Part shown: piece after piece, positions 28,801 through 51,339 of the stretch
Layout: each line of letters starts with the position of its first letter
Position numbering within the stretch: the stretch's first letter is position 1
NCBI RefSeq assembly: GCF_964204865.1
Contig: NC_135256.1
Location: forward strand, 11,718,001-11,782,000
From: Styela clava
Lineage: Eukaryota
Length of the DNA stretch: 64,000 nucleotides
Reading direction: 5' to 3'
The notes under the pieces: model-generated
Told to the model about the DNA's origin: nothing
The model's database searches: none
Seen by the model: only the letters and a program-made list of their open reading frames with translations
Translations under genes and position numbers: made by a program

Positions 28801-29306
28801 GAAATATACTTGGTGCATTTCATAAGTTGATCATTACACTCCATTCTTGAGAGTTCAAGAAAAACTGAATCCCAGTCAACTTTGCGTTCACTAGCAATAA
28901 TTCGAACTATTGTGCGAAACTTGGACATTTGTTTATTACTGATTGGATCATCAGCAGGTATAATTGACAAGCGGCGATTTGCAAGTTCCTTGGATTCTGG
29001 ATCGAAATAAGGGGTCGGATGAGATGAACTTTGCATTCCGCATAGTTTTCGTATTCTTCTTGCAGTCTGAACATCAGTTGTCACCCAAATTACAGGACAT
29101 CCCCTGCTTACATATCCTTCCAAAAGCTGGATACCACTTGTCGGAATAACAAATTTAATAGGTTCATTTCTTTTATGCTCCAGGACAACTTTGAATTTCA
29201 TTGAATATTTGGTAAATTTTAGATTTGAATTAGATATTGCAGCAGGAAATGATTTCATTGATCCAATTCTTATTGTTCGAAATGGAATTTCAAATTTCGT
29301 CTGCAT
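25851..29306 (-). CDS. G9a/GLP (EHMT1/2)-like H3K9 methyltransferase, single-exon CDS, with SENP6/7-like N-terminal domain
   Basis: EHMT Cys-rich region ([22 protein letters not shown]...HRFH...CPHCG), ankyrin repeats ([24 protein letters not shown]), pre-SET, SET ([27 protein letters not shown], FDYG), post-[11 protein letters not shown]. Confidence 0.95.
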   Translation of the reverse strand: [1151 protein letters not shown]

Positions 29307-30774
29307 GGTTCAAGTATTCTATCTAGAGTAAAAAATAAATAATTCACTATAGTTACTGTTTGACTGTGTAATAAGGTTTGAAATTTTAGTATGACACTAA
29401 TAAATGTACAAAGTTCTTAGCCTACAAATAAAGTGGAAGGATTTAATCATGTAGTCTACTTTATGGCATCCATTTCAACCAGGGTAACGCAATTTCTCGA
29501 TAGCGTGGAATTTAGTTGTTTTGAGGAGGAAATACTAAGCATTACTTTGTATCCGAATAGTTTTACTGCTGTTTTTTACCTTTTTACTGTTATTGTGATA
29601 TATATTTATAGACACTTTATGAACCATTCATATCGAGGAAAAGACAGAGTGAAAGCTGTGTGTGACACTAGCTAACGATCCTTTAAAGATTGAAAAAACA
29701 GCAGTTTTTATGCATAGTAATGAGAAAATAAAAAGATTAAAAATAGGCGTGAGGAATAAATAAGTGTGGAATGTATCCAATAAAGATAAATGCAGCCTGT
29801 TACAATAGGGCACAGTTCTTCAATCCCAAGATGTCCTAACATTTGGTTCAATAAAACAAACGCTCAATTTGACATGACCATAATACTTTCCCGCTGAAGT
29901 TTTTTGCTTAAAACTGAGGTACAAATTTATTCTTTCGATAATTCTGGTTATTTTCTCCAAAGAATACAATGATGACGCTTTCCGATTGCGCTTCCTATAA
30001 GTTAATTGAGCAGCGCCAGTTTGTGCCGATATGGAGGCCCAGATTGTATTGTGAAGGAGGGGTGTGCATTCACTGTTATAATTGATGTCTTTTATTAATG
30101 CGAGAGACATTTTTGAAATCGGAGAATTGCACCGTACTGTGGTATGCGTGTCGGAATAAAGCTTTATATTTAAGAATTTTTCCGAATGTTTATTAAAAAG
30201 TGATAATTGCAGTTATACTGTATGTATAATAACCATTTTTTGAGCAAAAAATAAAAATCTTTACTTCAATGATCGAGAAATAATTCTTAGAATTAGTTAA
30301 TTACCTAGGTCCTAGATGCTTAGTTAAAAATAAAATTGTTCTAAATTTTTTCCTATCATTATAAAGTTTATGCTATTTCAGTATACAACACTTGGCATTG
30401 GCAATTTGCATTTCGTTCCAAATTATTTTTTATGATTTGTTAAAACAAGTCAAATAGCAATATTTATCATAATATACTAGATGTTACCACCCAACATTGT
30501 TTCCATTGACATCATACATTCCATGAATTTAGGATCGTTATTACAGTATTACCCATTTGATTCAGATTGTTAAGATCATACAGACATAAGGTTCTTAAGT
30601 TATTAGATATGACTACTAAATTAAGTTACCATCCAGCCATCTGCAGATCTGACATTAAAAAACAAAATAACTATTACAGTATTAGTGAATGAATATTTCA
30701 CACTATTATTTATAGCGTCAGCGTCAAAACACTGGCACAATATATTTAACATGAAATGTCATACAGCCATATTT

Positions 30775-31677
30775 GGGTCTGGTATAGTTTAGTACCACAT
30801 GCACTTCTAGTTGGCCTGGCTCAACAATTTTTGCATATGCCAATCCTAACCCCCACCTGACTACGTCACCGAAAAATTATGTCATTTCGACGTCACATTG
30901 GCGTAATAAGGCCCACCAAAGTATGCGGATGGTCGTCCAAAACGCGCAGATGATCACCCGAAATCGAGCAAGCTATTTCGGGTCTCATGTAGTTTCGTAC
31001 CTAACATACTTCCAGTGGGCGTAGCATGACAATTTTTCCACGTATCAATCCTAACCCCCACCTGACTACACCATCCAAAAATTACATCATTACGACGTCA
31101 CAGTGACGTAATAGAGCTCTTCAAACTATATGAACTGCCATCCAAGACGCCCAAACGAGCACCCGAAATCGAACAGTTATTTCTCTCGCTTCTCGTCGCA
31201 ATGATTCCAATAGGAATGAGATCGATAACGTCAGTCAGTTCTTTATCGTCGGCGCCAATGCCATTTCGGGCAATCGTACGTATATTTGACAAGCTCTATG
31301 ACGTGATTGTGATGTCGTAGTGACGTAATTTTTGGATGGCGTAGTTAGATGGGGGTTAGGATTGACATATCAAAAAATTGTTATGCTACGCCCACTAGAA
31401 GTACGTTAGGTACGAAACTACACGAGACCCGCTATTTCTCTCGTTTTCCCGTCACGATAGGAGAGAGATCGCCGGCGTTACGAGTTCGTTATCGGCGGCG
31501 CAGATGCCATTTCGGGCGATCGTAATTATACTTTTACAATCCCTATGACGTGTTTGTGACGTCCTATTGACGTAATTTTTGGATGCCATAGTCAGATGGG
31601 GGTTAGGAATAACATATGCAAAATTCGTTTTAATACGCCAACTGGAAGTACTTGTGGTACTAAACTATACTAGACCC
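30775..31677. mobile_element. GGG...CCC-ended MITE (outer copy), superfamily uncertain
   Basis: Long TIRs GGGTCTGGTATAGTTTAGTACCAC ... GTGGTACTAAACTATACTAGACCC; 8-bp TSD CCATATTT. Related fragment at ~12410-12500. Confidence 0.85.
30980..31430. mobile_element. Related MITE nested inside the 30775-31677 element
   Basis: TIR GGGTCTCATGTAGTTTCGTACC ... GGTACGAAACTACACGAGACCC; 8-bp TSD GCTATTTC (30972-30979, 31431-31438). Confidence 0.88.
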
Positions 31678-32579
31678 CCATATTTGCTATCATTCCCCTT
31701 CATTTTCTGTTCTGGAAGCAGTTTTGTGCAATACTTTTATGTTTCTTTCACGATTCCGTGGATTTTATGGCTAGTGTTTTTTCAGTCAGACATAAATAAT
31801 AACTAATTCATTCGAATAAGCTGAAATTATCATTGCATAAAATTATTACACTCTTTTATGATACGAATTATTTACTGGCAAGTCAAGCTTCCTCGGGTTC
31901 AGCACTGCGCGCATATGCAGCAAAGACGCCAATGGACAACGGAGCGGCTCAAAATGCCATCTGGTGGTTAGCGTTTAAAGATTTTCTAACGCAAGCGCGG
32001 TCGCAATTTTGCCATGTTTTAGGTTAGGTATGTATTCTGCCCGTAACACCAAGTGCAGTTTTAAGTATTTCGCGGCATCTGAAGCTGCCGCAAAACCATG
32101 GCGGAATCTCCAAACCTTGGCCACAATGACCAAACCACGGCGGCTAACTTTCAAGCTGCCACAAACAATGGCGTGAGGCGGGGTACCACGGCAGCAAATT
32201 GAAAACCACGGCAGGTGAAATTATACTGCCATGAACCGTAGTTACGCTGCCGTAACCACTGCAAGAGCTGCCGTAACCACGGCAGGAGCTGCCGCGGTTA
32301 CGGCAGGTAGGAATAACCTGTGGTAGCGAAAGATTGCTCGCCATGAACAGTGGAAGATAGTGGGGAACCTTGTGGTTAATTGCGCATTACCACGGCGGGA
32401 TAACGGGGAGCGCGGCGACAAGTTGGTTGCTGCCATCAACTGAAGAAGCGAGATTAGCATTCAGTGTTGTTTGTTGTTTTGTTTGCATTCAAGAGTAATA
32501 AGGAAATGATTTGGCGTTACAAATGAAGTCAGCCTTGGGTGTATATTGCTTTGAAGTACCGTTAGGGTGCAGTTGGAAG

Positions 32580-33303
32580 CAGAGTTGGATCATTTGTAAT
32601 TATTTACAGTTTTTTATGTAATTGTAATGACTGAATGGAGGCATTTTCATTCTGTGTAATCGTAACTGTAATTTGCTAAAATTCTGGCTCAATTACACTT
32701 TCAATTAGACTAAATCTTAGTATTTTGAAAATGGATGAACATCAAACAAACTCTTCCGAAACATGTGTTGAACCACTTCTTGCACCATTGTCAGAGTTTT
32801 TTAAATCTTTGAGCAGCACTGAGGCAGGCTGTAACAACTTAAAAAAAGGCTTCATCAAACACACTTGAAGAGATGTTCTCCCCATCTATATCTATAAATC
32901 TGTAAATAGAGGAAAGGACCAAGAAAATCAGAAAGTGATGTAAATAGCTATTTGGGGGAAGAAATTTTGCGACCAATTAATGTATTGGAAGAAGAAATCA
33001 GAAAAATTTCCCACGCTGAATTACAGCAACATCAGCCCCGTCAGAAAGAGTTTTTTCAATTGCGGATAACTTTTATACAGCATGAAGAAATTTATTGGGT
33101 TCAGAAACTTTTCGCAGCCTAATCTTCATCAAGTGCAATCCAACAGTTCTTGAGCAAGGGAAAATGTAAATACGAACCAAAATGTTATAATTGTAAATGC
33201 AGTTTGATATTTTTTGCACGGAGTAATTGTAATGTAATTGAAACATTTAAGGGAGTAGTTGTATTTGTAATTGAACTGAATTAGTGTAATTGATCCAACT
33301 CTG
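32580..33303 (+). mobile_element. Deleted hAT element nested in the Zisupton 3' region
   Basis: TIR CAGAGTTGGATCA ... TGATCCAACTCTG; degenerate hAT C-terminal dimerisation motif (SERVFSIAD...LIFIKCN, ~33040-33140); TSD imperfect (GTTGGAAG / GTTAGGAAG). Confidence 0.75.
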
Positions 33304-34089
33304 GTTAGGAAGTAATGGCTGGTTGGAAGTAAGGTGCCATTACTTCCTCTGGCAATAAATAATGTTGTATATCATTTGCGCTGTGTCTTTTTTAGTCATA
33401 TTGATTCAAATTAGATCGCAGTACTACCAGAGTAAAATTGTGTCGGTTGGGTTTGATTAAAATTGCATTTACTCTGCTAGGCGATTCATCTACAGTAGGG
33501 GTTCTCAACTTTCTGCGAACCGGTACCACTTGAATTTTTCCTTTACCCCGAAAAAGCCACTCTATGTAAGAAAACGGGAATGGAAGTATTTTATAATGTG
33601 GCACTACATCCATTTTTTCTGGGACAAATTATAACCAGTTGCATTAATTATATGCAGTAACAACATATTATTTTCTCTTCGTTTCTGATTTCCCAATACA
33701 GACAGATAACTTTTAACTTAAAATGAAAACATGCCAGTCTCTCTCGTTTTAGGGGTGTAGGGGCGGGTGAGGGCAATCCGTGAAAACAAGAAATGGATTG
33801 CATGCGATAAAAAAGAGAGGGTAATGCTCTCATAAGGGTTTGTTGTTGCAATAATTTAAAGCTGATTGCGTACCACAGCTCTACAGTTGGCCCCTACAGC
33901 TTCTTGCACACTCACTATCTCCATCGTTGACACTGGAATCCTTTTATGACAAAGCCACTTATCGAATATTTCTATAATATTTACAGGCAGATGAGGAACC
34001 TCAACTAGCGAACTTCAAATTCCAAAAAAGAAGGTATGACATTGTGCATGTTATTAAAGTTTAAAGAAAATTACACAAAAACTTAAGTT

Positions 34090-37000
34090 TTATGTGCAGT
34101 GTTCACAGAAAAACTCTTCGTTACCCGCAAAATCTGCGCAATATTGGTGGCACCACCTTTCGCATCCATCACATTCGACCTACAACAAAATTATTACTTT
34201 ACTTTATCCATCAAAACTGCATCCATAAGGAAAATGTTTGACCTTACCCAAAGTGTGCCACCATCAGGGGCAGTCCTGCCATTACAGCCCACACAAAAGT
34301 GTGCCAGCTCATCAACATCTAAAAGATGAAGGAAAACAAATGTAGGATTGCAAATACCTAACTAATATAGTCATGTATATTCCTCCTCAGATTCTAACCA
34401 ACCGCAAAAATGAGTAAAATTTCTTTGCATACACGATCAATATTGACCTCAATCCGATACTTAATTAACTTCCTTTTCCATTCCATTTTTCAATGTCATC
34501 AAATTAAGCTCTGGGCTCTGAGTTTTATAACCCACTTAGCCATGTTCAAAAGAAAGTTCTAAATATCATCAAAATATAGCTGTGTGCTACCAACATATCC
34601 GTGACCGCATAGATGTTATGGTGCTAGTTGTTACTTGACTTCCAGCACTGCTCTCCACACTTGAATAAAAATGACTTATGCTTAGACCTAGTTAATAAAA
34701 TAATAATGCACCTGTGGCTTCCAACAGAAGGTCTCCAAAATGGATTCTGTAGACTTTACAGATGCCTGTCGAATGATTGAAATCCGTTGTACAACCTGTT
34801 ACGATTGCTTCGGCAGCCTAGAATGTAAAAAAATAAAACAACTCATATTTCTATAGATTTGCACCAATGAGATGATTTAAAAACAAGGTTCCAGTTGAAT
34901 GGTGGTGGTATCAATATAAGGTACTACTAGTAGTAAATGTTTACTCACAAATATAAATGAAAATTTAAAGATCTACCGTAATGAGCCTGTGTGCATCCTT
35001 ATCAGTTTAATAATACCACTATAAAAACAAATTGGACCCGATGTACCTTCACAACCAAAATTCCACAATTAAACCCATCTTCTTGTTCACTATGCTTGTT
35101 TGTTAACAGTCTCCAATCTCTTTTGTCACCTCCATGGTATTTCCAAAATTTCCTGGGAGAAAACGTAAAAAAAAGAACAGCCCTGATTAGTCCCACAACA
35201 CATCCTTAACTTTTTTTTTAAGTGTTCTAAGAACTGCATATTCTTGCTAATATGAGCTTTCATACCTAGCTTGCAATCTCAGTGCAAAAAACTTGTACGA
35301 TCCATACAGTTTTGGTAATCTGTTTTTGATGTTTTAAAATTCAGATAACACTAGTAGAGATTTAAATGCATGACTAAAACATTGATGTTCTATCGTTGAA
35401 CTCAATAAGGGCATGATAATTTAAAATGAATCTGTGAGTGTTTACAAGCTAATAATCATTTAGTCAAGCAGAAAACCACAAACCTCCAATTCTCCATCAG
35501 CGTTTCAGCATAACTCTCTTCATGGCCAACAGGGTCATAAATAGTGACACTCCCTTGAGATGGATCTGTAATCTGAAAACATGAAACTTTGTTCACAAGA
35601 GTAGAAGAATTTCTGGTTTGAAGAGCAATACAATACAGAATATGCCATATTTGTTTTGACGTGATATATTGAAACATTTTGTAATTGCATTTGAGAAGAA
35701 AATTTTCCAAAAGAATTTCATTTAAATTAACAAAGATCTAGCAATTTACCTACCATTAGAGTCCAGTGATTGCCATGGTTCACAGCACTCATAGTTGGTT
35801 TTTCAATAGTCAACTTGGCCTGGATGTAAAATAGGATGGTAACGAAAGCGAATAAACGATGATCAAAAATAATAAACATGTTATTTTACCAAACTTTTGT
35901 ACTTTCGACGATAAATCCCCTCCCAAAACCACATTGTGGAATATAATGCAGACAGAGCGCTATATTGAGTATGACTGGTCCACTAAAAACAAGTTGATTT
36001 AGAAAGTGAGTCACTGATAAGAAATTTCGGACTGAAATATAATTTATGAAGATGTCACAGTTCCACATGGAATACAGAGATGAACAATACTAAAAGACAT
36101 ACCTTATGACAAAGAGCTGCAATTATTCCATCTATTATCTTCAGCAAAGTTGGTAGCATTTGAAATAAAAATAATTATTGAAAAACGTTAAAGTTCAATT
36201 TTATAAACAATCTTACACAAACTAGAAATGATGGTTACATTCTGATGGTAATACTCCTGTATAAATTAGTACTTGTGTACATGCATAACATCTGAGTGAT
36301 TTCCAAACTATGAACATGGCTGTACAGTTCCTTTGTTATGTACACACTGAGTTCTTAACAGCTAAAAATCATTTTATATAAATATTCGTTCAAAATGTTC
36401 CTCGGTATATTACTTCTATTGGCAGGGTTAGCGCTGCTGCTGAATTTCCTTGCAAGACAAAGATTAATTTCTGTTCAATGGTTAACCTAATCTATGGCTA
36501 ATCCCCATGAAATTTGAATTCTTTATTTATCGCGAATGTATAGATTGTTTCTCTCACTAGGCCTCAATGACGGTTAAACACACATAACTCTACAACGGGT
36601 GGAACAAATTCGATGAACACTTTTAAAGGAATTTTCACGTTCTATTTTCTCACTTTATCATCAAGATAGCTGTCACCCTCAAGAAGGCACATACACTCCT
36701 TGTCTAGCCCTTTCTTTGTATCTCCAACTACACACTCAATCCTATTCCTATGAGTTGACTTCCATAATTTCTGTATGTCTGAAGATAATATTATGCATAG
36801 CATTATCAGTAACACGTAATTGCAACGCTATGACTGATAACAAAACTGAATCATTCATGGAATAATAACGCCTCATAAAATCAAAGTATTGTCATATAGA
36901 AGGAGATCAGCTATTGCTCAAAAAACTATCATTCAGACAATTACCAAAATATATCAAATTTTAAAGAAAAATTTAATACAATGAATATTATAAAATTTAC

Positions 37001-40000
37001 CATTAAATTTGGCAGGCAGAAAAAGACATTTTCTTGATTCATCACTATCTGAAAAATGTAAATGAATAATTAGAGATAAGTATCATACCAAGACATCTTA
37101 ACGATAAACCAAGTAACTCCCACCTTTATTCTCGGAGTCATAAATATTACCATCACTGCATGAAGTTGATTTCATTTTTGCTGAACTGCAATGAAAAGTT
37201 TGACCCATAAGTATGAAGATAAAGTAAGAAAGACTGAAAATTGTGGATGACATTTAAATAGAAATATGAACTTCTTTGAAGGCTTCAGCATATTATGAGA
37301 TTGAAGAATGTACCATATAAAGCATCGTTAAATATTCATTTTAATCATTACATCGTTGAAACACATGGTATACTCATCCTCATATACTCATAAGTGCAAA
37401 TACTTACCAAAATGTCTGATCTTCTTGATATTGTGACACTGTTCCAGTAGTCATTCCACTCTGCTTTAATAGGAAGTAGGAATTTGAAAAAAATATGACA
37501 CAATAAATTAACTTTGCGAAGCTTTCTTTGAACACAATTATCTGACCGAAACTCGTTTATTTCGTTATAATAAATAATGCAGAATGAAATTCTTGAATTT
37601 ACAAGTTAATTAAAACAATACAATGAAATATGAGCGCAATAAAGTGGAATAGGGGGGAATGTTTGTTTCACCTATTATAGTTTGTCAGGCCAGACTCCTG
37701 ATGTCAAATAACATGATAAAACTCACTCATAGTGAACATCGTACTATTTCAGTTTTGTGGAAAAATCTCAACCGTGACGCAGGCCGAAAAATTGCCTCAT
37801 GGGCAGCGTTTTGGAGACTCCTGGCATAGATAATTTGATCAATACCATCATGCAAAAAATTCATTATAATACAAAAGCGGTAAGAGCAAGAAAAAAATTA
37901 TCTCACTATATTTTCAGAGTACACATTGTCTTCAGGGTTGGCAACTACCTCATTCATAGCTTCATCATCTTCGTCGATGAGTAATTCTTCCTAAATTTTC
38001 AAACCTCAGGAGATATAATCGATGTAGGTAGGTAGTAGCATGAATTATAAGACACATATAATAGAATTCTGTTTAATTCCTTCCTAAATCTTATATTAGA
38101 AAAAAGCATTCCATAGTATAACTAAGAAATTTCTACAATTCATTTACAGGTTTGTACATTTACGATAACTCGAAAGAATGGGATAACATAAAGCCATTAA
38201 CATTTTAAAGATATCTTTTATATTTGATTAATGATATTGTCGGAAACCGCAAAAGCAGACCTTTATAAATTGTAAATGTCTTATTCTACTTTTATTTTAC
38301 AATACTATGCATTCACATGAAAACAAATTTAATAATACATGCATACCTCTGTGACCGATCCACTGGTTCCATCCAAAACGTTACCTAAAATGAGGTGTGT
38401 AGTGAGAAAATATATCCACATTACTCAATAACATGAAAATCATGTACCTTTAACATCTGGTATAGCAATTCCTTCATGATTCCTCCGAATTTTATTTCCA
38501 AATTGAGTCTTCATTTTTTTTTCATATCTTGAGTTTATGTCTTTATTACGCAGGTTAATGCTAACTCGCGAAAGCCAAAGGAAATTGGTAGTGTCCATAG
38601 AGCAAACTGAAGATCTACAAGTAAGGTTGTAAAGCATTTTACCAAACATATTCGCACAGCATGAACTCTTAAAACATGTCAATATTCAAGCGATTCATCT
38701 CAGTAAAATATCAATTTCCAACTATCTTGAGTTTTTTTATACGTGTCATAGCATCAAATTAATTTTCTGCCTATTAACATTAAATGGTCATGCTTTATTG
38801 CCTCAAAATAATCGACAATGTACATCACAACATGAGTTAAATAGTAATATGATCCATCTACCATTAACAATATTTTTTCAATAAGCAAACTATCAATACA
38901 TCCTCGATTGAAGCATTTGTGTAATAATGGCCAATCACTGAATAGTATGAAAAATGTCAAATACGACATGCCACAATTGGTATCTGAACTGGAGAAATTT
39001 CCCATCTAGCAAACAAACAAACCCTCTGGACAAAAAATTGGTTTGTTGAAAGATATTCCTCGAAAACCTCAGTCATCAGTTTTCTAAATATTGTGCATTG
39101 ATTTAGGTCACATATACAACAGTGTTTCGGAAGCTCTTGTACTGTCATTTCGAGGCCACCATACCCTGGTTCACTTCACAATATAAATATATTAAAAAAA
39201 AGAGGGGTGGTTGAATAAGATGGAAGCTTGCCTATCTTTTGCCATGTGAGCATTTTCCTGCTCTGCCACACTGGTATTTATGTTCAAATCAGAGCAGTAC
39301 TTCAAGTTGCGAAAAGAATTTTCTGCGGTCTTTTTCTTCGATCTTGTATGGAACCTATCACAGAGGCTGTATTTTTTATGAGCATCCAGTTTAACCTGTG
39401 GTAGAGAGCCATGTTTTTCCAATTCAAGATTTTTGTCAGTATATGCAAACAGCATTCCTTTATCAGGCCCAAAAATACCCCTTTTTCTAGCCTCGCCATG
39501 ATGGGCTACCTGAAAACAGATAATAGTGTTTGAAGAGTATTCTGACCAAAGTTGGAGGAATGAACAAAACATATTAGTGAAATGATCTCTTTCAACGAAA
39601 CAGTAAGTATATTTGTGAGCTTTCGTTAGATCATGGTCTAACTTCTTCAAACAATACAAGAGATAACTTAATCGAATAGCGCATATTCGGAGTACCACAT
39701 ACGGATCCGAAGTAGAAAGTAAACAAGGAGAAAGGACCTGCAGTTCAATACACAGTATCAAAGTTCCCTTAATATTAATATAAATTACACATTATTTGTG
39801 AATACTTTTGTATATCAAATATACAATATTTAAAATTATGTATATCCACAGTGACTTAAACTAAAAAGAACTCACTTGGGAAGCAATGTCAGATATTATA
39901 GCATGAGGTTGTCTCTTCAGGGACAATATTCCGTCAATATAATCTCTAGCACTTTCCTGTCTTAGAAGATATTTCATATAATAGCATATCCCATGTGGGC

Positions 40001-43000
40001 AACGAAAATGTACAATCCCTCCTAAAAAATAATGATGAAAATCTCTTTCAAGCCATTTGATCATGCAGCAAAATCCCAAAACATTGTCAGCTGCACAAGA
40101 TATAAATAAGAGCAAGTTATTCATTCCTCTTTAGTATTACATTGTAATAAATCATAGCGATAATGTAGAAAAGATAAATACAGCAAAAATGCAACCATTG
40201 ACATTAGACCTAGTAAGATAAACATTTCTTTAATAAAACAATAATACCAACCACCGCAATGTTTTATGCTTTTGTACATCTTAGGGCATACATCCTTAAA
40301 CAGAACCAGCTCATTCAAAGTATTAACAAGGTCTTCTGAACTCCCTTTGCTACTTATACCCAAGACTTCACACAAGTCTATCAAACGAGAATCAGATGTC
40401 TGCAAAATAAGAGCAATTGCCTCAAATAATAGTTTTTAAATATATAGCTATAGTTTTAAAATATATATATCTGTACAGTATAAACACCAAAATTAAAACA
40501 AAAACTATTGTAATTATTGCAGTGTCAAATTTTTGTTTTCAAATCGAGGCATTTGGTCATTTTTGACTATTTGTGAGACAAAAAGGTAGAAAAAAGTATG
40601 CCTACAAGAGGAGAGTTTATAGCTTGAAGAATATCTTCATGAGAGACTTTGGAGTAGGCTAGAGGCTTTTCAACAACTGGCTTGTTAAGAATAAATCCTT
40701 TCCTATGCTCTGTATTTGGGACTTCACTTGAAAATCGGCATTCTGGAGATATCCAAGGTGCAACTGTGTTGTACATTATTTCCACTTTCCATGGATTCTC
40801 CTTACAGCCTGGTTATTCATAAGGTTGAGATCAGTGAACTGGATACATAAACTAATACAGAAACTATCAAATAACATGTGAAACGTGAACAAAAGCAAAG
40901 AAAAATTTAAAATAAAAGCTAGGTAAAAACCAAATAAAGTTAATCATTGTCCACGAGATAGATCTGTACGCATAATTCAAGTACCGGTATGTAAATGTAT
41001 TCCTGACCATAAAATCCTCTTCCTATAATTTCCATCTGATATTTTTCCCAAGTTGCGTCTACATCAACGAGGTCACAAGTATTTTGGGTTTTGTCAACGG
41101 CTTCAACTGTATGTAAACGAAATACCAAATTTACAGCTTGTGATATTTCATCAGCTATGTTTTAAATGCGCAGCCAAATAATGTTGCTAATGTTACCTGG
41201 TCTTCTGCACGTGTTTTTCCAATTACCATCACATATCAGCACTGTTGGATATATTCCACATTTCAAGCAACAAAAGTCGTATTGATAGTCTTGGAGAGCC
41301 AAAAAATGCAAGAACGCATTCCTGATCTTATTATAAGGAATAGTTTCGATGAACAACATTTTTAGATTGCTCTCGATTGAGATATGATTCTAAACAGTGG
41401 AATTAAAATTGTATTTTATAGTATAACCTTGCAAACCATATTTGACCAGAACTAATAATGCAATACAACAAATATTTATGTGAATTTAGCACACGCCTTT
41501 GAGCTGCTTTGTCCATAATAGACCAGTAAACGGCAATAATCAATAACTCACTTTCAGTCCACGCAGTAAATAACAACACAACTTGAGACTCAATAAAACA
41601 CTATTGTCAAAATTATGAAAACCTTCTTCATATTCTTGATATCTAACTTCCATTCCACATTCAGCACATTCCTTGATGAATAATTCAGTTGCTGTGCAAA
41701 CATTTATAATAACTCGTAAAAATAGTTGTTAAGGAATAAAACATAGAAGCATGATTTAAATATCTTGGTATAATATCACAGGCTATTATCTAACGTTTCG
41801 ACTTCGTATTTTACAAAATTCGACAAAATTCGTATTTTATACCAATAAGAAGTTTAAACCATACAATGACAAGCATTCATACTTTTCCAAATGTGGCCCA
41901 TTCCATATGCTACTGTTCGTTTTTTATTCTTGATGCATAAATCCTCGTCGCACTTAAGACATTTTTGTTCAGAGGGAGTCAGCAAAAGCGGAGGAGAAAT
42001 GTCACGCAAAAGACGCTGAGGTATTTCAGCTGGAATTCTTTTTTTTGTTAAAAAATACTTCATCATATAGTCCATATTATCAGTCAGTGTATGACAAATA
42101 CTGTAAAAGATGTGAAGCATTGTAAATGAGAAATATCAGAAAATGCATCTTGCCAAAGCAAGTTCTACTATGTTAAAAAATACCTAATCCAAATATTTAT
42201 AAAAAAATATTGAATAGGCTACAACAGAGGTGGCCAACCTACTTGCGACCGCGATCGACTAAAATCTAGTTTTCAGTCGTAAGTGTTGAATTTCTCAAAA
42301 AAAACTTGCTTAGTATCCATGTATTATCTAAATAGCAAAAAATAAATATTCGCAAACCATAACAGTTACATGATTGTTGAAACTTCCTGATATCCTCTTA
42401 GCTTGCCTAGAATTAGGAAAAATTGGCATTCTGATGCGACTGCTACAGTTGAGAATAAAATTTATCACACTACTCCCGGAGTGAGACAACTACTTTCCAC
42501 AGAGCGCAAGAGTTATCGTACGATCCTACGTTAGTTCAGGCAATATTCAATACTCGATTCAGGCGACACGACATTCGGAATGCTCATTTTCTTACTTTTG
42601 GCAGCGGCAAAACTTTCTTTCGTTGCATATCGCATAATAATTTGTTCAGTCGGTCTCGCTTGGGTTCAAGGACTATATCTGTATATCGTATTTAACGCTT
42701 GCGCAGTACTGCGTTATTTCTATTATAAAACACACAACATGCGCTGCATGAAACTGGTTAAACGCAATTTTTTAAGCTATGTTACCGAATTTTCTAAACA
42801 TCAGACGAGATCGACCACTCAGAACGTGGCGATCAACCGGTCGATCAACGTGTTGGCCACCCCTGGGCTACAACATAAAAATGAAATAAAAAATTAGGCA
42901 TTCAACCAATCTGTCCAATAAAACAAGGAAGCACACATGCTACTAAGTAATATTGCTGGTAGAAAGGAAAGATGAGGTGAATATTTTGGATTATATAACT

Positions 43001-44809
43001 AATACTACTGCAGAATATAATTCATTATAAAAGAAAATACACCTATTATGTATAAAAATGCTTTAAATAAACCTGGAAGGGCGCTTGATCCATTCAGGTT
43101 GTTGCTCCAATAAACACCACTTCGCTACAGCCTCATGGTAACATGTCGAACTCATGCCCGAGGTTGGACAAAGGCACGAAAATTCCCCATTATCTTTATT
43201 GAAAGAAACTCTTACCCTCTTCAATGGTGCAAAATATTGAATTTTTTCAGTGTAAACGGAAAAATAGATTGTTCTTGTTTCAAAACCCATTGTTGAAAAA
43301 TCAACAAGGGCTACAAGAGTGCAGCAATCCTTTTCACTGATTTCCTTCATATTTTTGCACCATTGAACCGACGAATCATTCAATATATTAAATTCCCTTA
43401 GTCGGTTTAGCGATGACAGTTGCAGTTTGTTTGTCGTTAAAATTGAAGATTCAGAGATAGAGTCCAAATGTCGACATTGGATTCCTGGATTGACTGTTGA
43501 AATGGCTTTGATAATTGAAATACAGTCGTCATCAGTGCACATAATTTTTTGGTTCAATGTGTGCTTTTGAACATGAATTGGAGCAAGTGGGCCAGAATCA
43601 CTTTGAGCAACCATATAGATTCCATTGAATGTGTCAACGCATACGCTCGGTAAAAGCTGAGTTGCATTGTGTTTAAGTTGAGCATGTCGCATCAATGACG
43701 ACTGATGCCTAAAGCGCTTGTCACAAGGTATGCATTGAAAGTTGAAAGTACCTGTAAAGTAAAAGTATGTAAACGAACAAGGTCTAAAAATGTGAAAAAA
43801 ATATCGAATGAAAATGAATCATGTAAAAGTGGTAAAGAAATAGATACAAATCACAAAATTTCAATGCACGAGTTTTCTTGACATACAATAAACAATTATT
43901 TATGCTCTCATATCTATAAGCGGACACCAACTCAATACCTAATACTTGCTAAATATCCATTAGAACATCTTTTCAATCATTAGCTTACCTTCACATAGAC
44001 TTTCTGAACTTTTGTTATTAGAATCTATGTCCATATCCCTGACTTCTTCACTTTCAATCACACCCAAACAATCTACACAAAACATTGAAATTCCAAAGTT
44101 ACTGTGTTATAGCTAGGTACTCTATTTGCAAGAAATAAGCCACAAAATAGTTTTAACCCGAACAACAGCCCGAAAGTTTATTACTATCGTGTATTTTGTT
44201 TTTTAAGTTTGGCCCAAGCCTCATTTAATTGGGCTTGTGTTTTTGTGTGCGTGCTGGTGGGCAGGCACATGAGATACTTCATGTTTTAAACTTTTTTGTA
44301 GGTTTTGCTTGCCCTCCAGAATTCTCCATTTTAAATTTAGGTTTGTTATGGAGTTTTCGAAATAAACTATCTATCTATCTAACCCTTACTCTTAGTAAGC
44401 CTCCTGTGGTCAATCATAGAATTTCTCCGTCCAAATATTTTTTCACAGGAGGGACAATGATAGTGACTCCTGGTCAAAGCACTTGTTCCTCGCTTCATAC
44501 AATCTCTTCTACAAGGCATAATGAAAGCTAAAATATTTGAAGATATACCGACTTATAAAATGACCAGTCATCACAACGAAAATATTCAGTATTCATAAGC
44601 TGTACCAGTAATACTGTATACATACCTCTTTCATCCCCATTGATGATATGAACAGCATATTTGATATGTTGAGTTTTCAGGTGGTGTTGAAAGCCACCTG
44701 GTGTTGTAAATGATACTCCGATACATAGTATGCATTGGTAAAAATCATTCACTTTTATGCACAAATCATCAAAATTTTCTGATTTTGTCTTAAAATAAGT
44801 ATCTGCCAT
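34090..44809 (-). CDS. Zisupton multidomain transposase (C2H2 fingers, SWIM, CxC, SAP-like, KDZ/HMGXB3-like core, Ulp1/C48 SUMO protease, PHD), many exons
   Basis: C2H2 CILC...HHLKTQH; SWIM FSCLCP...CYHEAV; core CLKCGIYPTVLICDGNWK, CPHGICYYMKYLLRQESARDYID, IISDIA, LCDRFH, NTSVAEQEN; Ulp1 triad GNHWTL / IYDPVG / QEDGFNCG; PHD CVGC...VECDGCERWCHQYC...FFCEHCT* (stop at 34090). Full exon chain not verified. Confidence 0.85.
42225..42865. mobile_element. hAT-type MITE in an intron of the Zisupton gene
   Basis: TIR CAGAGGTGGCCAAC ... GTTGGCCACCCCTG; 8-bp TSD GGCTACAA (42217-42224, 42866-42873). Confidence 0.9.
44162..44380. repeat. ~220-bp repeat ending in (TATC)n; other copies at 44986-45201 (inverted) and 46738-46953 (direct)
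   Basis: Near-identical sequence ACAACAGCCCGAAAG...AAACTATCTATCTA in three places. Confidence 0.9.
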
Positions 44810-44985
44810 TTATTACTTAATAAGGTGTTTCAAGATCTAAACATATATGAAGTTACTGGTAGATACTTCAGTACACAGTCTACACAGCCAAATTAAAATA
44901 GGTAATTCAACTTATCGTAGGCTACCTCGTGAATACTAGAAATTTGGAGATACCGGTACAGAAATAGATAGATAGATAGATAGTT

Positions 44986-46953
44986 TAGATAGATAGTTTA
45001 TTTCGAAAACTCCATAACAAACCTAAATTTAAAATGGAGAATTCTGGAGGGCAAGCAAAACCTACAAAAAAGTTTAAAACATGAAGTATCTCATGTGCCT
45101 GCCCACCAGCACGCACACAAAAACACAAGCCCAATTAAATGAGGCTTGGGCCAAACTTAAAAAACAAAATACACGATAGTAATAAACTTTCGGGCTGTTG
45201 TACTCTCTTTCAACAATTACGTTGATAATGACCAATACCTACAACCTAATGCAAAGATAATGTGGGGAGTGGAATGTAATAAATTTGCGACGATAGTCAT
45301 ACTCATGAAGCCATGAAAGCTTTAAGAAAAACCAAGCCATGAAAAACTACACTGATTGCTAGATTGGGCATTGCGGAAAAGGTGATAAGTGGTTTAATAT
45401 ACAAACAAACGCAAAACCATGGCGGCAAATTCGGTGTGCGGACACTCATAAAAGCAATTATTAGGAAAAACACTAATCACACGTGAGCAGGTCTGTAGCC
45501 TAATTGATACATTGACGTGGCCAACATTGTTAAAACAGTACGGTACCGGTATACACACAGAGAGAACAAATCAAAAATATGCCACTAAATGAATGTTTAA
45601 AAATGTTACACTGCAAACTATTTACACATATATAGTTGAGTACTCAGTATTCAAGCAGAATTTCTAGAAATAGCAGTATATCATACTCTTTGTCACAAAA
45701 TAAAATATCTGAATCAATCCCTGTTGTATTCATCTTTCGATTCTGTTATGATGTCCGTATGTTGCCTTTATGCTGCCATGTAATTTCATATTTCGGCCTT
45801 GTTGATATTCCTTAAGTGCTGGTTCATTGTTGTCAATCTAATCTTTCTGCGCCGTTCAAAAATGCGACCGCACCCGGCGACTGCCAAACACAAACTTTAA
45901 ATCCAATCTTTTATCCATAAACTTCTTTAATTCCGGTGGATGGGCCTTGATCATGTTGATATCACGAGATACAAATCTAATAGTAAATACCGAAACACAC
46001 AGCGCGTAGCATTCTCAGTCCAACAGCATTGATTGATCTTTCATCTAACAGAGCAACAAAAACACGTCCGACCCAGACGGCAGTCTGAAGAGTGCTTGTA
46101 TCTGTGTAAATGAACAATGAACCAGCACTTAAGGAATATCAACAAGGCCGAAATATGAAATTACATGGCAGCATAAAGGCAACATACGGACATCATAACA
46201 GAATCGAAAGATGAATACAACAGGGATTGATTCAGATATTTTATTTTGTGACAAAGAGTATGATATACTGCTATTTCTAGAAATTCTGCTTGAATACTGA
46301 GTATTCAACTATATATGTGTAAATAGTTTGCAGTGTAACATTTTTAAACATTCATTTAGTGGCATATTTTTGATTTGTTCTCTCTGTGTGTACACCGGTA
46401 CTGTTTTAACAATGTTGGCCACGTCAATGTATCAATTAGGCTACAGACCTGCTCACGTGTGATTAGTGTTTTTCCTAATAATTGCTTTTATGAGTGTCCG
46501 CACACCGAATTTGCCGCCATGGTTTTGCGTTTGTTTGTATATTAAACCACTTATCACCTTTTCCGCAATGCCCAATCTAGCAATCAGTGTAGTTTTTCAT
46601 GGCTTGGTTTTTCTTAAAGCTTTCATGGCTTCATGAGTATGACTATCGTCGCAAATTTATTACATTCCACTCCCCACATTATCTTTGCATTAGGTTGTAG
46701 GTATTGGTCATTATCAACGTAATTGTTGAAAGAGAGTACAACAGCCCGAAAGTTTATTACTATCGTGTATTTTGTTTTTTAAGTTTGGCCCAAGCCTCAT
46801 TTAATTGGGCTTGTGTTTTTGTGTGCGTGCTGGTGGGCTGGCACATGAGATACTTCATGTTTTAAACTTTTTTGTAGGTTTTGCTTGCCCTCCAGAATTC
46901 TCCATTTTAAATTTAGGTTTGTTATGGAGTTTTCGAAATAAACTATCTATCTA
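44986..46953. repeat. Large inverted repeat: arms 44986-45831 and 46113-46953, 281-bp spacer
   Basis: Arms are reverse complements apart from one 5-bp indel and a few substitutions. Confidence 0.93.
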
Positions 46954-47576
46954 TCGGGCAGTAAGGTACCTAGATTACCGGTACCGCATTCTGGCATTAC
47001 CCTACTGCTGTACTGGCAGACTATCTAGCTATCAAAAAGTCAGAGTGATTGTTAAAAGACAGAGGCTTGCATGGATAACAGCTCACAAATCTTACGACTC
47101 TGTAACTGAAATTACCAAAGTCGCAACGCACTAATGAGGCACATTAATATCATACTCACCTGCCATTATCCATAGTACAAAAACCCCAGATACTGCAACA
47201 TACATGGTAATAAGGCATACCGGTAAATATTTTCCGAAGCTGCCCTGAAACCATGGCAAAGCTGCCGCGGTAACGGCAGTACTTTTTGCCATCGCCGCGG
47301 TATATACACACTTGCCACGGTTTGCTAATAACCATGGCAAGAGACGGCGTGGTACGCTCGTGGCAGGAGCTGCCATGAAGTGGTAAGAACTGCGCCTCCG
47401 TAACACAATACCGGTACTTGATGCTGCTGTTTTCATTTTATCTAATGTCTATCGATTTAGGTACCTGTATGACAGTCAAAACGCTTGCATCAAGTTGAGC
47501 CTTTCTAATATATCTATACATCAATCAAACGTGGGTCGATATTTTAGTTAAAGATTCTGGTAAACAAAAAGCAATC

Positions 47577-50468
47577 ATGTCAAAAAGACCCATTGATGAC
47601 CAGCCGTCTACTGATATAAAGAAAGTAGCAATAGGTAAAGTAAAAATGCAGGTAATAAAATATTTTTGAAGAACCAAAAAATAAACAATGCAGATCTGTT
47701 ACAACTGTCAGACTGTTCAATACACTGATACAAGCATTCTTCCGTCCAATTAATATTAATAACAAGTTTGGGAATCCTATGTCTGTATCAATAAGCCATT
47801 GTGATTGCATTTTTATTATATTTTTAAGAAAAATTTGAAGGGTAATTCCATAGGAATGTATGAGTAAGAGCATTTAATTCAAATCTTTCTGCATCCTTTT
47901 AGACATTTCAGGAACTGTTTCAATTTTTTTCGATCAGGGTTATCCACATTGAAAGGATATGTTGCAGAAAGAAAAGGAGAGCGAGCAGATATGCAAGATG
48001 CTCATGTAATATTGGATAATTGTACTGCAGACTTCACACAATTTGCGGATAAAATGTATGTGATAGGCCCTAGTTAGATAAAAAATATGGGATTTTGATA
48101 TTTTTAAAAAAAGATTAAAATTAAAACATTCTGGGGAATACATTGATAAAAACTTGTTCGACTCCTGTTTTTAATTGGTACATTGATTTAGGTTTAAATT
48201 TTGATTCATGTGCGTCAATGTTTGTAGTAATTTTTTTGTCTGTTTTTTTGTTATTTTCATTGTCTTCTTTACGGGTAGGCTACTGCAGTACTGGTTTATT
48301 AAAAAATTTCCCAATTTGTTTGTTGCCTTGATAAAGAATAGTTAATACTAGTTCAGTATACTTGAGCAATATTTCTAATTCGACTGTTAATGAGGATTAA
48401 CTATTTTTGTTTTACAGTCAAAGAGTTGCATATTATGCTGTATTTGATGGCCATGGTGGTCATCGTGCTTCAAAACATTGTGCAAATCATTTACATCAAC
48501 ATTTGATGCAAAAATTACCTAAATGTAAGTTTAGTTATGGTTAAATTTAATGGAAAAAATATGGGATCAACTGAAGAATCTCTCCCCGGACCCGCCTGGG
48601 GAGGAGATTCTTCAGTTGGAATACAACCAAACTAATCTGCCAATGTAATGATTTTGGGGGTATTTATGCGTAATATTTGGCAAATAAAGTAATGGATTGT
48701 TACCTGTTTGGATATAGTCTTTGTATATCGTGAGTATTAATTTCCCGATCTGCTCTGACACATTCTATTTTCCATCTCAACTGGACTAACTGAATAATCT
48801 GGTATTTCCAAGTGGAATTTATGAATTCATAACAATCGAACTGATGCTGTATTTTATATTTTTAGATGAAGTTAACAATTTTCCGAAAGAAATGAAAAAA
48901 ATGATTTTTCAGTCGTTCAAATCAGTTGATGAAGAATTCTTAAAAGAAGCTTCTGCTCAGTAAGTTGTATTCACATGAATATGTGGACGAATTTTTCATG
49001 ATTCCAAGATGTTTTAGCTCAAATTCTTAGTGAATTTAGTGAAATAGAATAGGTGAACTGCATGTGAACAAGCTAAATATATATTTTTTCTTTAGGAAAC
49101 CTGTTTGGAAAGACGGAACCACAGTCTGTTGTATTTTATTGTTGGATGACACCATGTACATCATGAATCTTGGTGATAGTAAGGTTGAAGTTATAGCTTT
49201 AAATGTCAAAAGAGGACCATCTGATTAAATTCAGCCAAAAATGCCGTAATTGCTCATGATGACGTTTCAACGTAATATGTTCCATCAGATGGTGTTATTT
49301 TGACTCATTGAGGTTATTGGAAATGTATGATAATTTCAATGATATTTATTGTTCTTAACAGGCCATTTTGTGTAGATATAATTCAGAACATAAAAAACAT
49401 GTATCAGTGTCTTTGAGTAAAGACCATAATCCTACTGATTATGATGAGAGGCAGAGGATACAAAAACTAGGAGGTCAAGTCAGGTATGAACCTTTACCAC
49501 TTACTGATTGTAGAGTTTATTTATAGTTGATTCTAGAATCTTAAAAGCGAACACTTTTGAACATATCTTCTCTGTTTCAGGAATAATCAATCTTTTTCTC
49601 ATGTGTGAGCTCATGATAATTTTCAAAATATTCATTTCTAATAGCTCTGTGAGCTGTCCAATGCATTGTTACTTGCTATGAATTATTAGTTCCATCAGAC
49701 CTGACAAAGATGATTGCGCTAGAATATTTGATGTTTTACTCTACTCATAGTCTTGTGACTCTCACCCAATTAATGCAAACAAGGTTAAATATAAAGCTGG
49801 AACATACAAGCCTTATAGGTTATTAAGTAAATCTAAATATGCTTGATGCTGTAATTTCTGGTTTTTCAGGGAAGGGAGGGTTATGGGTATCTTAGAAGTG
49901 TCAAGATCAATTGGAGATGGTCAGTATAAAAGATGTGGAGTAATCAATACACCTGATGTTAAACGTTGCCAATTAACTTCAAATGATAGATTTTTATTGA
50001 TTGCGTGTGATGGATTGTGGAAAGTTTATAGTCCTGATCAAGCTATAGAATTCATTCTTAATGTACTGCAGGTCAGTTTCTGTTTTGTTCGCTTTATTCC
50101 GGAGTAAGTAAATATTCTCCATATTGCCAAGAGGTACATTTGTCTATTCATATATGTTTCGTCCTTTCACTGCTTTTGTTAAGAGTGTTTGAATCGACTA
50201 ATCATAGTGATATCTATTTCATCATTTTTATTAGAATTACAGTGATAACATAGATATCCTTTTGTCAGTTTTTAGTGATTTAATTTAATTTTAATAAATT
50301 GCAATTTATCTATTTCAGGATAACTCTGTACAAATTCCAGAGGGATCAACAAAAACTCTTGAAGAGACAAGATTTGAAGCAGCATGCAATAAACTAGCTA
50401 GTGAAGCAGTTCGGAAAGGAAGTGCAGATAATGTGACTGTTTTACTTGTGTCTGTTTCGAAACTTTAA
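47577..50468 (+). CDS. ILKAP: Integrin-linked kinase-associated PP2C phosphatase, multi-exon
   Basis: LKGYVAERKGERADMQDAH, AVFDGHGG, WKDGTT, NLGDSKA, GILEVSRSIGDGQYKRCGV, IACDGLW, EAVRKGSADNVTV; stop TAA at 50466-50468. Start codon uncertain (N-terminus shorter than vertebrate ILKAP). Confidence 0.92.
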
Positions 50469-51339
50469 TGAACATGTTCCATAGCAGTACTGTGAATGGC
50501 TCTGTTCAGAGTTTCAAAATGCACTTTTTTCATCATTCCATTGAAAAGTAAAACTCATTGTGATGCCGATAGGAACAGGATGTTTTAATGTCTTTTCACG
50601 AATAAGGGCAATTTTTTTGTTTGGTTTTTCGGGAAATAAATGGCTTTATTGCAATGATGTTGGGGGATGGCCGACGGCGCACAGGAACTTTGGAATAGTC
50701 TGATCTCAGCATTTCGTTTAATGTTTTCAAATACATCTGGCCTTGACTCTTATCATGTGTGTGTTGGACTCACAATAAACGTCGATGATCAAACACTCCC
50801 AGTAAAACATTTTAGGGTTTTATATTCATGTATGGTAATATGAATCTCTGCAGATAGAAGATATACCTGAAGTGTATGTTCAGTCGCCGCACCTAGCCGG
50901 TCATTAAAAATCTGGTCAATAAATCACGCCGGAAAAAAGTAATATGTTTTTAAAAAAATTTCCTGTAATCAGTATGGCCGTGGTGTCATTTCATCTTCAA
51001 TACACTCTGAAACGCCACATTGAAACGTTCATCACAGGTCAAAACTTTCCACAAAAGGCTTGCGATATTTATTCCTTGCATGTTTGAACGGGAAATAAAC
51101 GGTGGCATGAACTCGTTGCCCATGTTTAAGAAAAGTTGTGAGCCGCAAAAAAAATTTTCTTAATAAGACTGTTGGTGAACTAAGAGTATGACTTAAAATA
51201 AATAACATTTCACGGTCAAACAATGCTTTTGGAAAATCCATTTATCTGCAACATTAAATGGTCCTTTCACGACCATTACGCAGAGCGCTATTTTGCAAAG
51301 AAAGAGTGCGAACCTAATCACGTAAACTAATAATGCTAG

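Follow-up and report, generated by a model that had tools for sequence, protein, structure and literature searches.

SWIM and SAP domains are features of the Zisupton family of DNA transposons, and the fish Zisupton of Boehne et al. 2012 is said to combine zinc fingers, SWIM, SAP and a SUMO-protease domain, the SUMO protease being a founding feature. Zisupton elements are described as making 8-bp target site duplications (TSDs) and carrying terminal inverted repeats (TIRs) (PMC12730594), and as being multi-exonic with proteins of up to 1400 amino acids (aa) (PMC9297572). Here we analyzed a 64,000-nucleotide stretch of the genome of the ascidian Styela clava (NC_135256.1, positions 11,718,001 to 11,782,000 of the forward strand), hereafter called the window and numbered from its first nucleotide. 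It contains an element of about 15.3 kb at 32050-47398, bounded by an exact 8-bp TSD and imperfect TIRs, which is very probably a complete, potentially autonomous cut-and-paste DNA transposon of the animal Zisupton type. The Zisupton kind is already known, the Styela clava element is an additional member of it, and Repbase or Dfam may already hold this Styela clava family.

Both termini and an exact TSD had been proposed in a preliminary description made from the sequence, and both were confirmed. The two copies of the 8-bp TSD, CGTAACAC, lie on the plus strand at 32042-32049 and 47399-47406, and two fixed positions would agree in 8/8 bases by chance with a probability of about 2.7e-5. Identity between the flanks spans 9 bp (CCGTAACAC at 32041 and at 47398), and the TSD was set at 8 bp and not 9 because the 8-bp register alone yields a TIR: 20 of 31 positions pair in the register 32050-47398, whereas three shifted registers pair at 6-7 of 31. 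A 9-bp TSD of the Mutator-like type was consequently ruled out, since the TIR then drops to 7/31. The 20/31 pairing is the single best among the 63,969 minus-strand positions of the window. The left TIR (32050-32080, plus strand) stands at the 3' end relative to the gene carried by the element and pairs with the right TIR (47368-47398, minus strand) at the 5' end. Both ends are GC-rich and hold subterminal repeats (repeat families D2, D3 and D17), found in both orientations on the left at 32078-32400, including a 21-bp tandem at 32246-32294, and on the right at 47233-47380 with a motif common to the left end. Six of the ten matches in the window to a 13-mer from the left end (at least 10/13 identity) fall inside the two ends, in agreement with the subterminal repeats first described. 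The TSD, the unique best TIR and the repeated subterminal motif together indicate that the element is well bounded.

The element carries a transposase gene on the minus strand (34090-44809), whose sequence-based exon model was built by reading the three minus-strand frames and then joining the exons by script. It has 27 coding exons, 3744 nt and 1247 aa. Exons 1-9 lie at 44809-44626, 44527-44390, 44072-43989, 43751-43073, 42100-41883, 41691-41552, 41389-41197, 41106-41008 and 40808-40606; exons 10-18 at 40399-40252, 40021-39876, 39509-39232, 38614-38448, 38384-38347, 37990-37907, 37460-37408, 37185-37124 and 37048-37001; and exons 19-27 at 36778-36654, 36138-36103, 35982-35890, 35819-35754, 35572-35484, 35152-35047, 34817-34712, 34318-34248 and 34179-34090. 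The introns are 25 GT-AG and one GC-AG, and the joined exons contain a single, terminal stop. The highly spliced gene that had been proposed thus gives a continuous open reading frame, with no internal stop through the Ulp1 and PHD regions. A homologue search with the largest exon retrieved an independent Styela clava model, P0001 (99%), which aligns with exons 2-19 at 99% identity over 960 aa. Seven substitutions were listed among these 960 aligned residues, together with one extra residue, and one of the seven sits where P0001 reads into intron 19.

P0001 stops within intron 19, 127 nt short of an AATAAA. If the exon 19 donor is read through (36654-36527, minus strand) and this nearby AATAAA is used, the result would be a shorter transposase that lacks the protease active site and the PHD finger, as the annotated P0001 product does. 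The early end of P0001 and the AATAAA would also be expected if the Ulp1 and PHD exons formed a separate gene or transcript, which we consider very improbable, since all phases join without a stop, no start or promoter was seen, and in a third variant, P0011, exon 18 is followed directly by exon 20. Moreover, in Clavelina lepadiformis P0004 a single chain runs from the core through Ulp1 to PHD, as here; its core is 43% identical to that of the element over 895 aa, its Ulp1-PHD part 33% over 300 aa (E 3e-41), and in tblastn it matched six C-terminal exons in order. We therefore retain a single 27-exon gene, whose Ulp1-PHD module may be optional through alternative processing because the short annotated product ends in intron 19. 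Upstream, a candidate exon ending in a strong donor was identified at 47160-47200 (minus strand), and the protein start is the same whether this exon is spliced to 44802 or not spliced. The candidate first intron (47159-44803, minus strand) has an 8-bp direct repeat at its two borders, the start codon being part of this repeat, and no other of the 27 junctions shares more than 5 bases. From this pattern it may have been gained by insertion or repair; introners have been reported in Styela clava (PMC12130899).

The N-terminal exons 1-4 (43073-44809, minus strand, as are all exons below) encode C2H2-type zinc fingers, below the Pfam C2H2 cut-off, and SWIM-like ligands C328/C330/C339/H341 that are kept in 42-44 of the 43-45 aligned rows. 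Exons 5-6 (41552-42100) encode a CxC4 cysteine cluster (PF18717), with E 5e-6 on exon 6 and E 4.7e-8, above the cut-off, on P0001. Exons 7-13 (38448-41389) encode an RNase H-fold DDE core recognized by alignment, model and structural search, with an inserted SAP domain in exon 10 that is below the cut-off in Pfam (E 0.0019) and has a structural match of Z 4.7. The core residues are D535 (exon 7; kept in 46 of 52 alignment rows), D740 (exon 11; 42 of 46), and D795-x-x-H798 and E827 (both exon 12; E827 in 35 of 40). An AlphaFold model of P0001 (56-row alignment, mean pLDDT 78.7) places D535 on strand 1, D740 on strand 4 and E827 on the last core helix, and we infer that these three form the predicted catalytic triad. 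In a wide structural search this model matched the DDE enzymes ISCth4 (Z 9.7, root-mean-square deviation 5.4, 269 aligned residues), Tn5 (Z 8.2) and prototype foamy virus (PFV) integrase (Z 8.1). In the element, 98 of 99 strongly conserved columns are intact, as are 154 of the 158 columns that are invariant across eight tunicate relatives.

To place the element, the neighbours of P0001 were retrieved with a protein language model, and its nearest clusters, at 0.92-0.89, carry the KDZ/CxC5/CxC6 families. The top cluster (0.92) has CxC5 in 25% and KDZ in 23% of its members, and all ten of the ten best family-bearing matches share these families. We also ran Pfam, at cut-offs of 0.01 and 0.05, on the long homologues, defined as those of at least 900 aa; there were 39 among the 150 listed, of which 37 were counted, one was scanned separately and one was left out. 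CxC4 is present in 31 of these 37. Three results count against the assignment: the Pfam KDZ profile PF18758 is unmatched by the element exons, by P0001 and by all 37 long homologues; Foldseek on the whole P0001 model returned no match at E 0.001; and the homologue searches returned no named fish Zisupton or HMGXB3. A sequence profile of the transposase likewise gave only zinc-finger, SAP and low-complexity matches against the Protein Data Bank (PDB). Because the PF18758 miss is common to P0001 and all of its 37 relatives, the profile misses the whole clade. The domain search thus recovered CxC4 and PHD of the expected set, while KDZ went unmatched. The proposed Zisupton/KDZ identity in an invertebrate host is supported by the ends, the TSD, the DDE fold and CxC4. 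Since the 8-bp TSD, the inverted ends and the multi-exon gene also match published Zisupton traits, membership of Zisupton (KDZ superfamily, CxC4 clade) is well supported, by features and not by comparison with a named fish element. As for other families, no hAT-dimerisation or MULE Pfam match was obtained on P0001 or the element exons, and membership of hAT or Mutator was not supported.

The C-terminal part of the protein begins with an Ulp1-like protease of the CE clan, encoded by exons 19-25 (34712-36778) and identified by profile and alignment. A profile built from eight Pfam-C48-positive relatives, P0004 excluded, scored 56.8 bits against residues 1014-1193, whereas the best of 500 shuffles scored 3.9. 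In alignment with the relatives the active-site residues are H1090 (exon 22), D1107 (exon 23), the oxyanion residue Q1147 and C1153 (both exon 24), so that the Ulp1 His/Asp/Cys residues of the preliminary description are present, as is its C-terminal C4HC3 PHD finger. The same description had called this domain a SUMO protease, and of that claim the intact triad stood while the substrate is less clear. Relatives P0003 and P0056 best match Ulp1/SENP structures (Ulp1, E 6e-7, and SENP2, E 1e-4, respectively), which argues for a SUMO protease. For P0004, the nearest relative of full length, in contrast, the matches to a deubiquitinase/deneddylase, SENP8 and SENP1 are similar to one another and all weak (E 0.04-0.3), as would be expected if the enzyme were a deubiquitinase or deNEDDylase of the CE clan. 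We regard the latter as possible but doubtful, and removal of SUMO as the probable activity of this putative protease.

Peptidase_C48 was found by Pfam in 8 of the 37 long relatives and a ubiquitin hydrolase (UCH) domain in 4 of the 37. The relatives with UCH are P0019, P0032, P0070 and P0105, three of which also have Ulp1 and one PHD; another relative, P0010, has Ser at the position of the catalytic Cys. The SUMO protease and PHD had been presented as a distinctive pair. This was overstated: the pair is not special to this copy, because Clavelina P0004, other homologues and the Ginger1 and Mutator transposases carry it as well (PMC2836005).

The PHD finger itself is encoded by exons 26-27 (34090-34318) and covers aa 1203-1246, with a C4HC3 pattern and residues F1202, W1218 and W1227; exon 27 alone matches PF00628 with E 1.7e-4. 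The best PDB matches of exon 27 are weak (E 0.03-0.4) and comprise KDM5B, KDM5A, SHL and PHF13. The PHD of relative P0056 aligns with MLL1 PHD3 (E 8e-4) at F, M and W, which correspond to F1202, W1218 and W1227 here. The PHD fingers of JARID1A, MLL1, TAF3 and RAG2 are reported to hold H3K4me3 in an aromatic cage that includes an invariant Trp, whereas readers of unmethylated H3K4 are without the cage and show a cluster of acidic residues ahead of the first Cys (PMC3241642). By alignment the three aromatic-cage residues are present in the element, and across homologues the cage positions Y/F, M/W and W are kept in 5 of 9 PHD domains, the Trp in 8 of 9. However, D1195, D1197 and E1198 precede the first Cys, which is a trait of unmethylated-H3K4 readers and tells against H3K4me3. 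Because the cage residues are accompanied by these three acidic residues, H3K4me3 is favoured and not proven, and we would give it somewhat better than even chances of being the mark that the finger most likely reads. A PHD pattern was found in 8 of 34 homologues by pattern search, and PHD in 4 of the 37 long relatives by Pfam. PHD-bearing proteins occupy several branches of the quick tree described below, a tree that yields no order of gains; one relative, P0031, carries two such fingers.

From DDE transposase chemistry, the zinc fingers and SAP domain would bind the subterminal repeats, the D535/D740/E827 site would cut the ends and join them to the target at positions 8 nt apart on the two strands, and filling of the gaps by host repair would give the 8-bp duplication. 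The Ulp1-PHD module would be an accessory that acts on chromatin at the donor or target site, where the PHD would read H3K4me3 and the protease would strip SUMO or another ubiquitin-like tag from the transposase, repair factors or silencing factors. Binding to H3K4me3 could then bias insertion toward promoter-proximal chromatin.

The element appears to lie in a host 5' untranslated region intron (32028-47460, plus strand), and removal of the element and one TSD would leave a 76-nt GT-AG intron, other acceptors being possible. This intron precedes a host PP2C phosphatase gene (47577-50469, plus strand; PF00481 E 3.5e-21 on one exon), which we take to be ILKAP-like. Its start codon lies 170 bp from the right TSD, a closer relation that the preliminary description had missed. 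On the other side, the sequence left of the TSD is CpG-rich (observed/expected 1.19 versus 0.45-0.70 in gene bodies) and faces a divergent EHMT-like gene; a presumed CTCF-like motif lies at 31957-31968, within this CpG-rich sequence and close to the insertion. A position just downstream of a CpG-rich host promoter fits a promoter-seeking element, at one site. Against this, targeting cannot be demonstrated from one insertion, and elements in non-coding DNA are in any case the more likely to survive selection. An H3K4me3-driven bias toward promoter-proximal insertion, suggested by the cage residues and fitting this one site, is thus a tentative proposal. We offer with yet more reserve the wider idea that an animal Zisupton aims insertion at promoters with a built-in H3K4me3 reader while its linked protease removes SUMO there, which would make it a one-chain, still-mobile analogue of RAG1 and the RAG2 PHD. 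No statement of PHD-guided transposon targeting was found in the searched literature, the supplements, Boehne 2012 and Iyer 2014 being outside its scope.

The protease and PHD might instead mainly undo SUMO-dependent silencing of the element itself. The intact triad and the Ulp1 and SENP2 matches of the relatives are consistent with this, and the TET/JBP genes found on fungal KDZ elements have been proposed to work against silencing by methylation (PMC12730594). However, the cage residues point to an active mark and not a silent one, the presence of UCH instead of or beside Ulp1 in 4 of the 37 long relatives and the Ser of P0010 suggest a looser role, and control of DNA repair has been proposed instead (PMC2836005). 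We hold an anti-silencing role to be a minority possibility, of the same order as the proposed promoter bias.

The ends and the gene are complete, as had been claimed, but the element is not pristine, since it contains three nested insertions without which it would measure about 12.5 kb. The first, in intron 4 (42217-42873), is a 641-bp miniature inverted-repeat transposable element (MITE; 42225-42865) with a 13/14 TIR and an 8-bp TSD, which we assume to be of the hAT type from its terminus and TSD length. The second is a 1968-bp foldback upstream of the start codon (44986-46953), with arms of 846 and 841 nt (3 mismatches and one 5-nt gap), a loop of 281 nt and microsatellite tails that face outward. 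Its arms end in AATAAA and a CTAT microsatellite, and these ends presumably resemble the 3' ends of non-long-terminal-repeat retroelements. The third, in intron 2 (44154-44385), is a 5'-truncated, identical 218-nt copy of the foldback arm end (44162-44379) flanked by a 6-bp direct repeat. No coding remnant was found in the foldback and no hammerhead core in 44100-47200, so that a Penelope-type origin of the foldback is unsupported; it is possible that the foldback is an assembly artefact. Rfam over 29300-48500 gave one match, below gathering (E 0.24), and Pfam gave nothing credible on 14 stray frames from the foldback, the MITE, intron 12 and the 3' region.

Several observations speak against an intact and recently mobile copy. 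Besides the three nested insertions, among them the 2-kb foldback, which might interfere with expression from its place upstream of the start codon, no further copy of the element occurs within the 64-kb window, and P0001, the one named model retrieved for the family, stops at exon 19. HMGXB3 is a Zisupton-derived gene whose frame is kept by host selection, and the locus could similarly be an immobile or domesticated single-copy gene with a frame under host selection and ends that are relics. P0001 differs from the element at about 0.6% of residues and the EHMT-like gene from its Styela clava protein at 4 of 1151, so that both could be alleles at one locus, and a heterozygosity of 1.72% is reported for Styela clava (PMC7540406). 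The nested insertions also show some age. In contrast, the perfect TSD, both ends and the subterminal repeats are still in place, the P0001 cluster counts 43 members whereas that of the EHMT-like gene counts 2, P0011 is a third variant, and still-mobile KDZ elements with fixed nested insertions have been reported (PMC12477816). An immobile or domesticated gene is therefore an improbable reading of the locus, and we keep that of a potentially autonomous transposon. The recency of the copy, also proposed earlier, is favoured by the perfect TSD, the open frame, the size of the P0001 cluster and P0011, and is called into question by the nested insertions, the lack of another copy in the window and a P0001 divergence that allelic variation could explain.

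The preliminary description had drawn attention to a host gene 2.7 kb away that appeared to link SUMO reading to H3K9 methylation. This gene (25851-29306, minus strand) has G9a/GLP domains by Pfam, resembles EHMT1/G9a, and starts 2735 bp from the left TSD; its SUMO link amounts to one motif like a SUMO-interacting motif (SIM) at aa 212-222, and nothing ties it to the insertion. This distance and this motif are what a functional adjacency would have in its favour. Since the protein acts in trans, the PP2C gene is far closer and a palindromic element lies in between, we find such a link scarcely credible and regard the adjacency as chance. The gene has an uninterrupted frame of 1151 codons among heavily spliced neighbours, which suggests that it is a retrogene. 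A homologue search found, for its first 215 residues, only the Styela clava protein itself among 271 candidates, a match that together with P0001 places the window in this ascidian; for the N-terminal domain Pfam gave nothing credible and PDB sequences gave 0 matches, while a language-model atlas gave a weak PH-like cluster lead (0.79-0.80) and a single-sequence fold reached pLDDT 35. The N-terminus with its SIM pattern may resemble the PH-like domain of SENP6/SENP7, and if this likeness is true the gene would be a chimeric SENP-G9a gene.

Other features of the window were also recorded. The palindromic element between the EHMT-like gene and the insertion site is degenerate, measures 915 bp (30769-31683), is 67% self-inverted and has internal repeats of 200-250 bp. 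A GC-rich tandem array at 55948-63030 repeats every 2.36 kb, each period consisting of two related 1.18-kb halves, with 98% identity between periods and 89% between halves, and a 72% diverged copy lies at 63.2-64 kb. The host genes at 2252-23500 include one with a SASRP1 domain (Pfam), and others that we take to be a WD40 gene, a RIO2-like kinase, a COQ4-like gene and a dual-specificity phosphatase-like exon.

The Styela clava element offers an invertebrate Zisupton that is clean and modelled throughout, with its two ends and a full set of catalytic residues. It comes from an animal branch that the superfamily's Pfam profile fails to detect and whose proteins carry the label 'uncharacterized protein'. 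Two questions can be approached with it, namely what leads unrelated DNA transposons to retain Ulp1-like proteases and whether their PHD fingers select targets. Should the PHD read H3K4me3 and bias insertion, this would provide a route for large elements into promoters and 5' introns, and both histone-reader target choice and the role of a transposon-borne Ulp1 would be directly testable in ascidian embryos. Without PHD targeting, it is one further family for the repeat library.

How does the element compare with the systems already described? It shares with fish Zisupton the 8-bp TSD, the inverted ends, the multi-exon gene and a protein of about 1250-1400 aa (PMC12730594, PMC9297572, PMC12477816), and differs in its ascidian host, perhaps in its C-terminal PHD finger, and in the nested insertions that enlarge it to 15.3 kb. 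Zinc fingers, SWIM, SAP and a protease domain of the SUMO-protease type are said to be common to both as well. The statement that intact copies are best known from fish went too far, multi-exon or active KDZ/Zisupton elements being reported from nematodes, algae and fungi (PMC9297572, PMC9977147, PMC12810828). Its nearest relatives are tunicate: Clavelina lepadiformis P0004, Styela clava P0003 and Ciona intestinalis P0005, P0007 and P0008 are 42-53% identical to it in the core and form one clade with it (SH-aLRT 99) in a quick tree of 50 of 56 rows, 6 being dropped as shorter than 250 aa, that is in effect unrooted. Among these P0004 has Ulp1 and PHD in the same order, whereas P0003 has Ulp1 but no PHD. 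The fungal and algal KDZ elements (Cryptococcus KDZ1, Chlamydomonas Zisupton-3 and Ectocarpus KDZ) resemble it in the DDE core, by language-model features, and in the 8-bp TSD and a size of 10-30 kb (PMC12810828, PMC9977147, PMC12477816). Their proteins are recognized by Pfam KDZ together with CxC1 and their TIRs are long (241 bp in KDZ1), whereas the ascidian clade has CxC4 and misses Pfam KDZ. The Ginger1 and Mutator transposases carry Ulp1 and PHD as a C-terminal accessory pair on a DDE transposase (PMC2836005), but belong to other transposase families. Finally, RAG1/RAG2 couples a DDE recombinase to an H3K4me3-reading PHD (PMC3241642) and serves as a model for how the PHD here could act; it differs in being domesticated, in having the PHD on a separate subunit and in its Transib origin, and the H3K4me3 binding that is proven there is predicted here.

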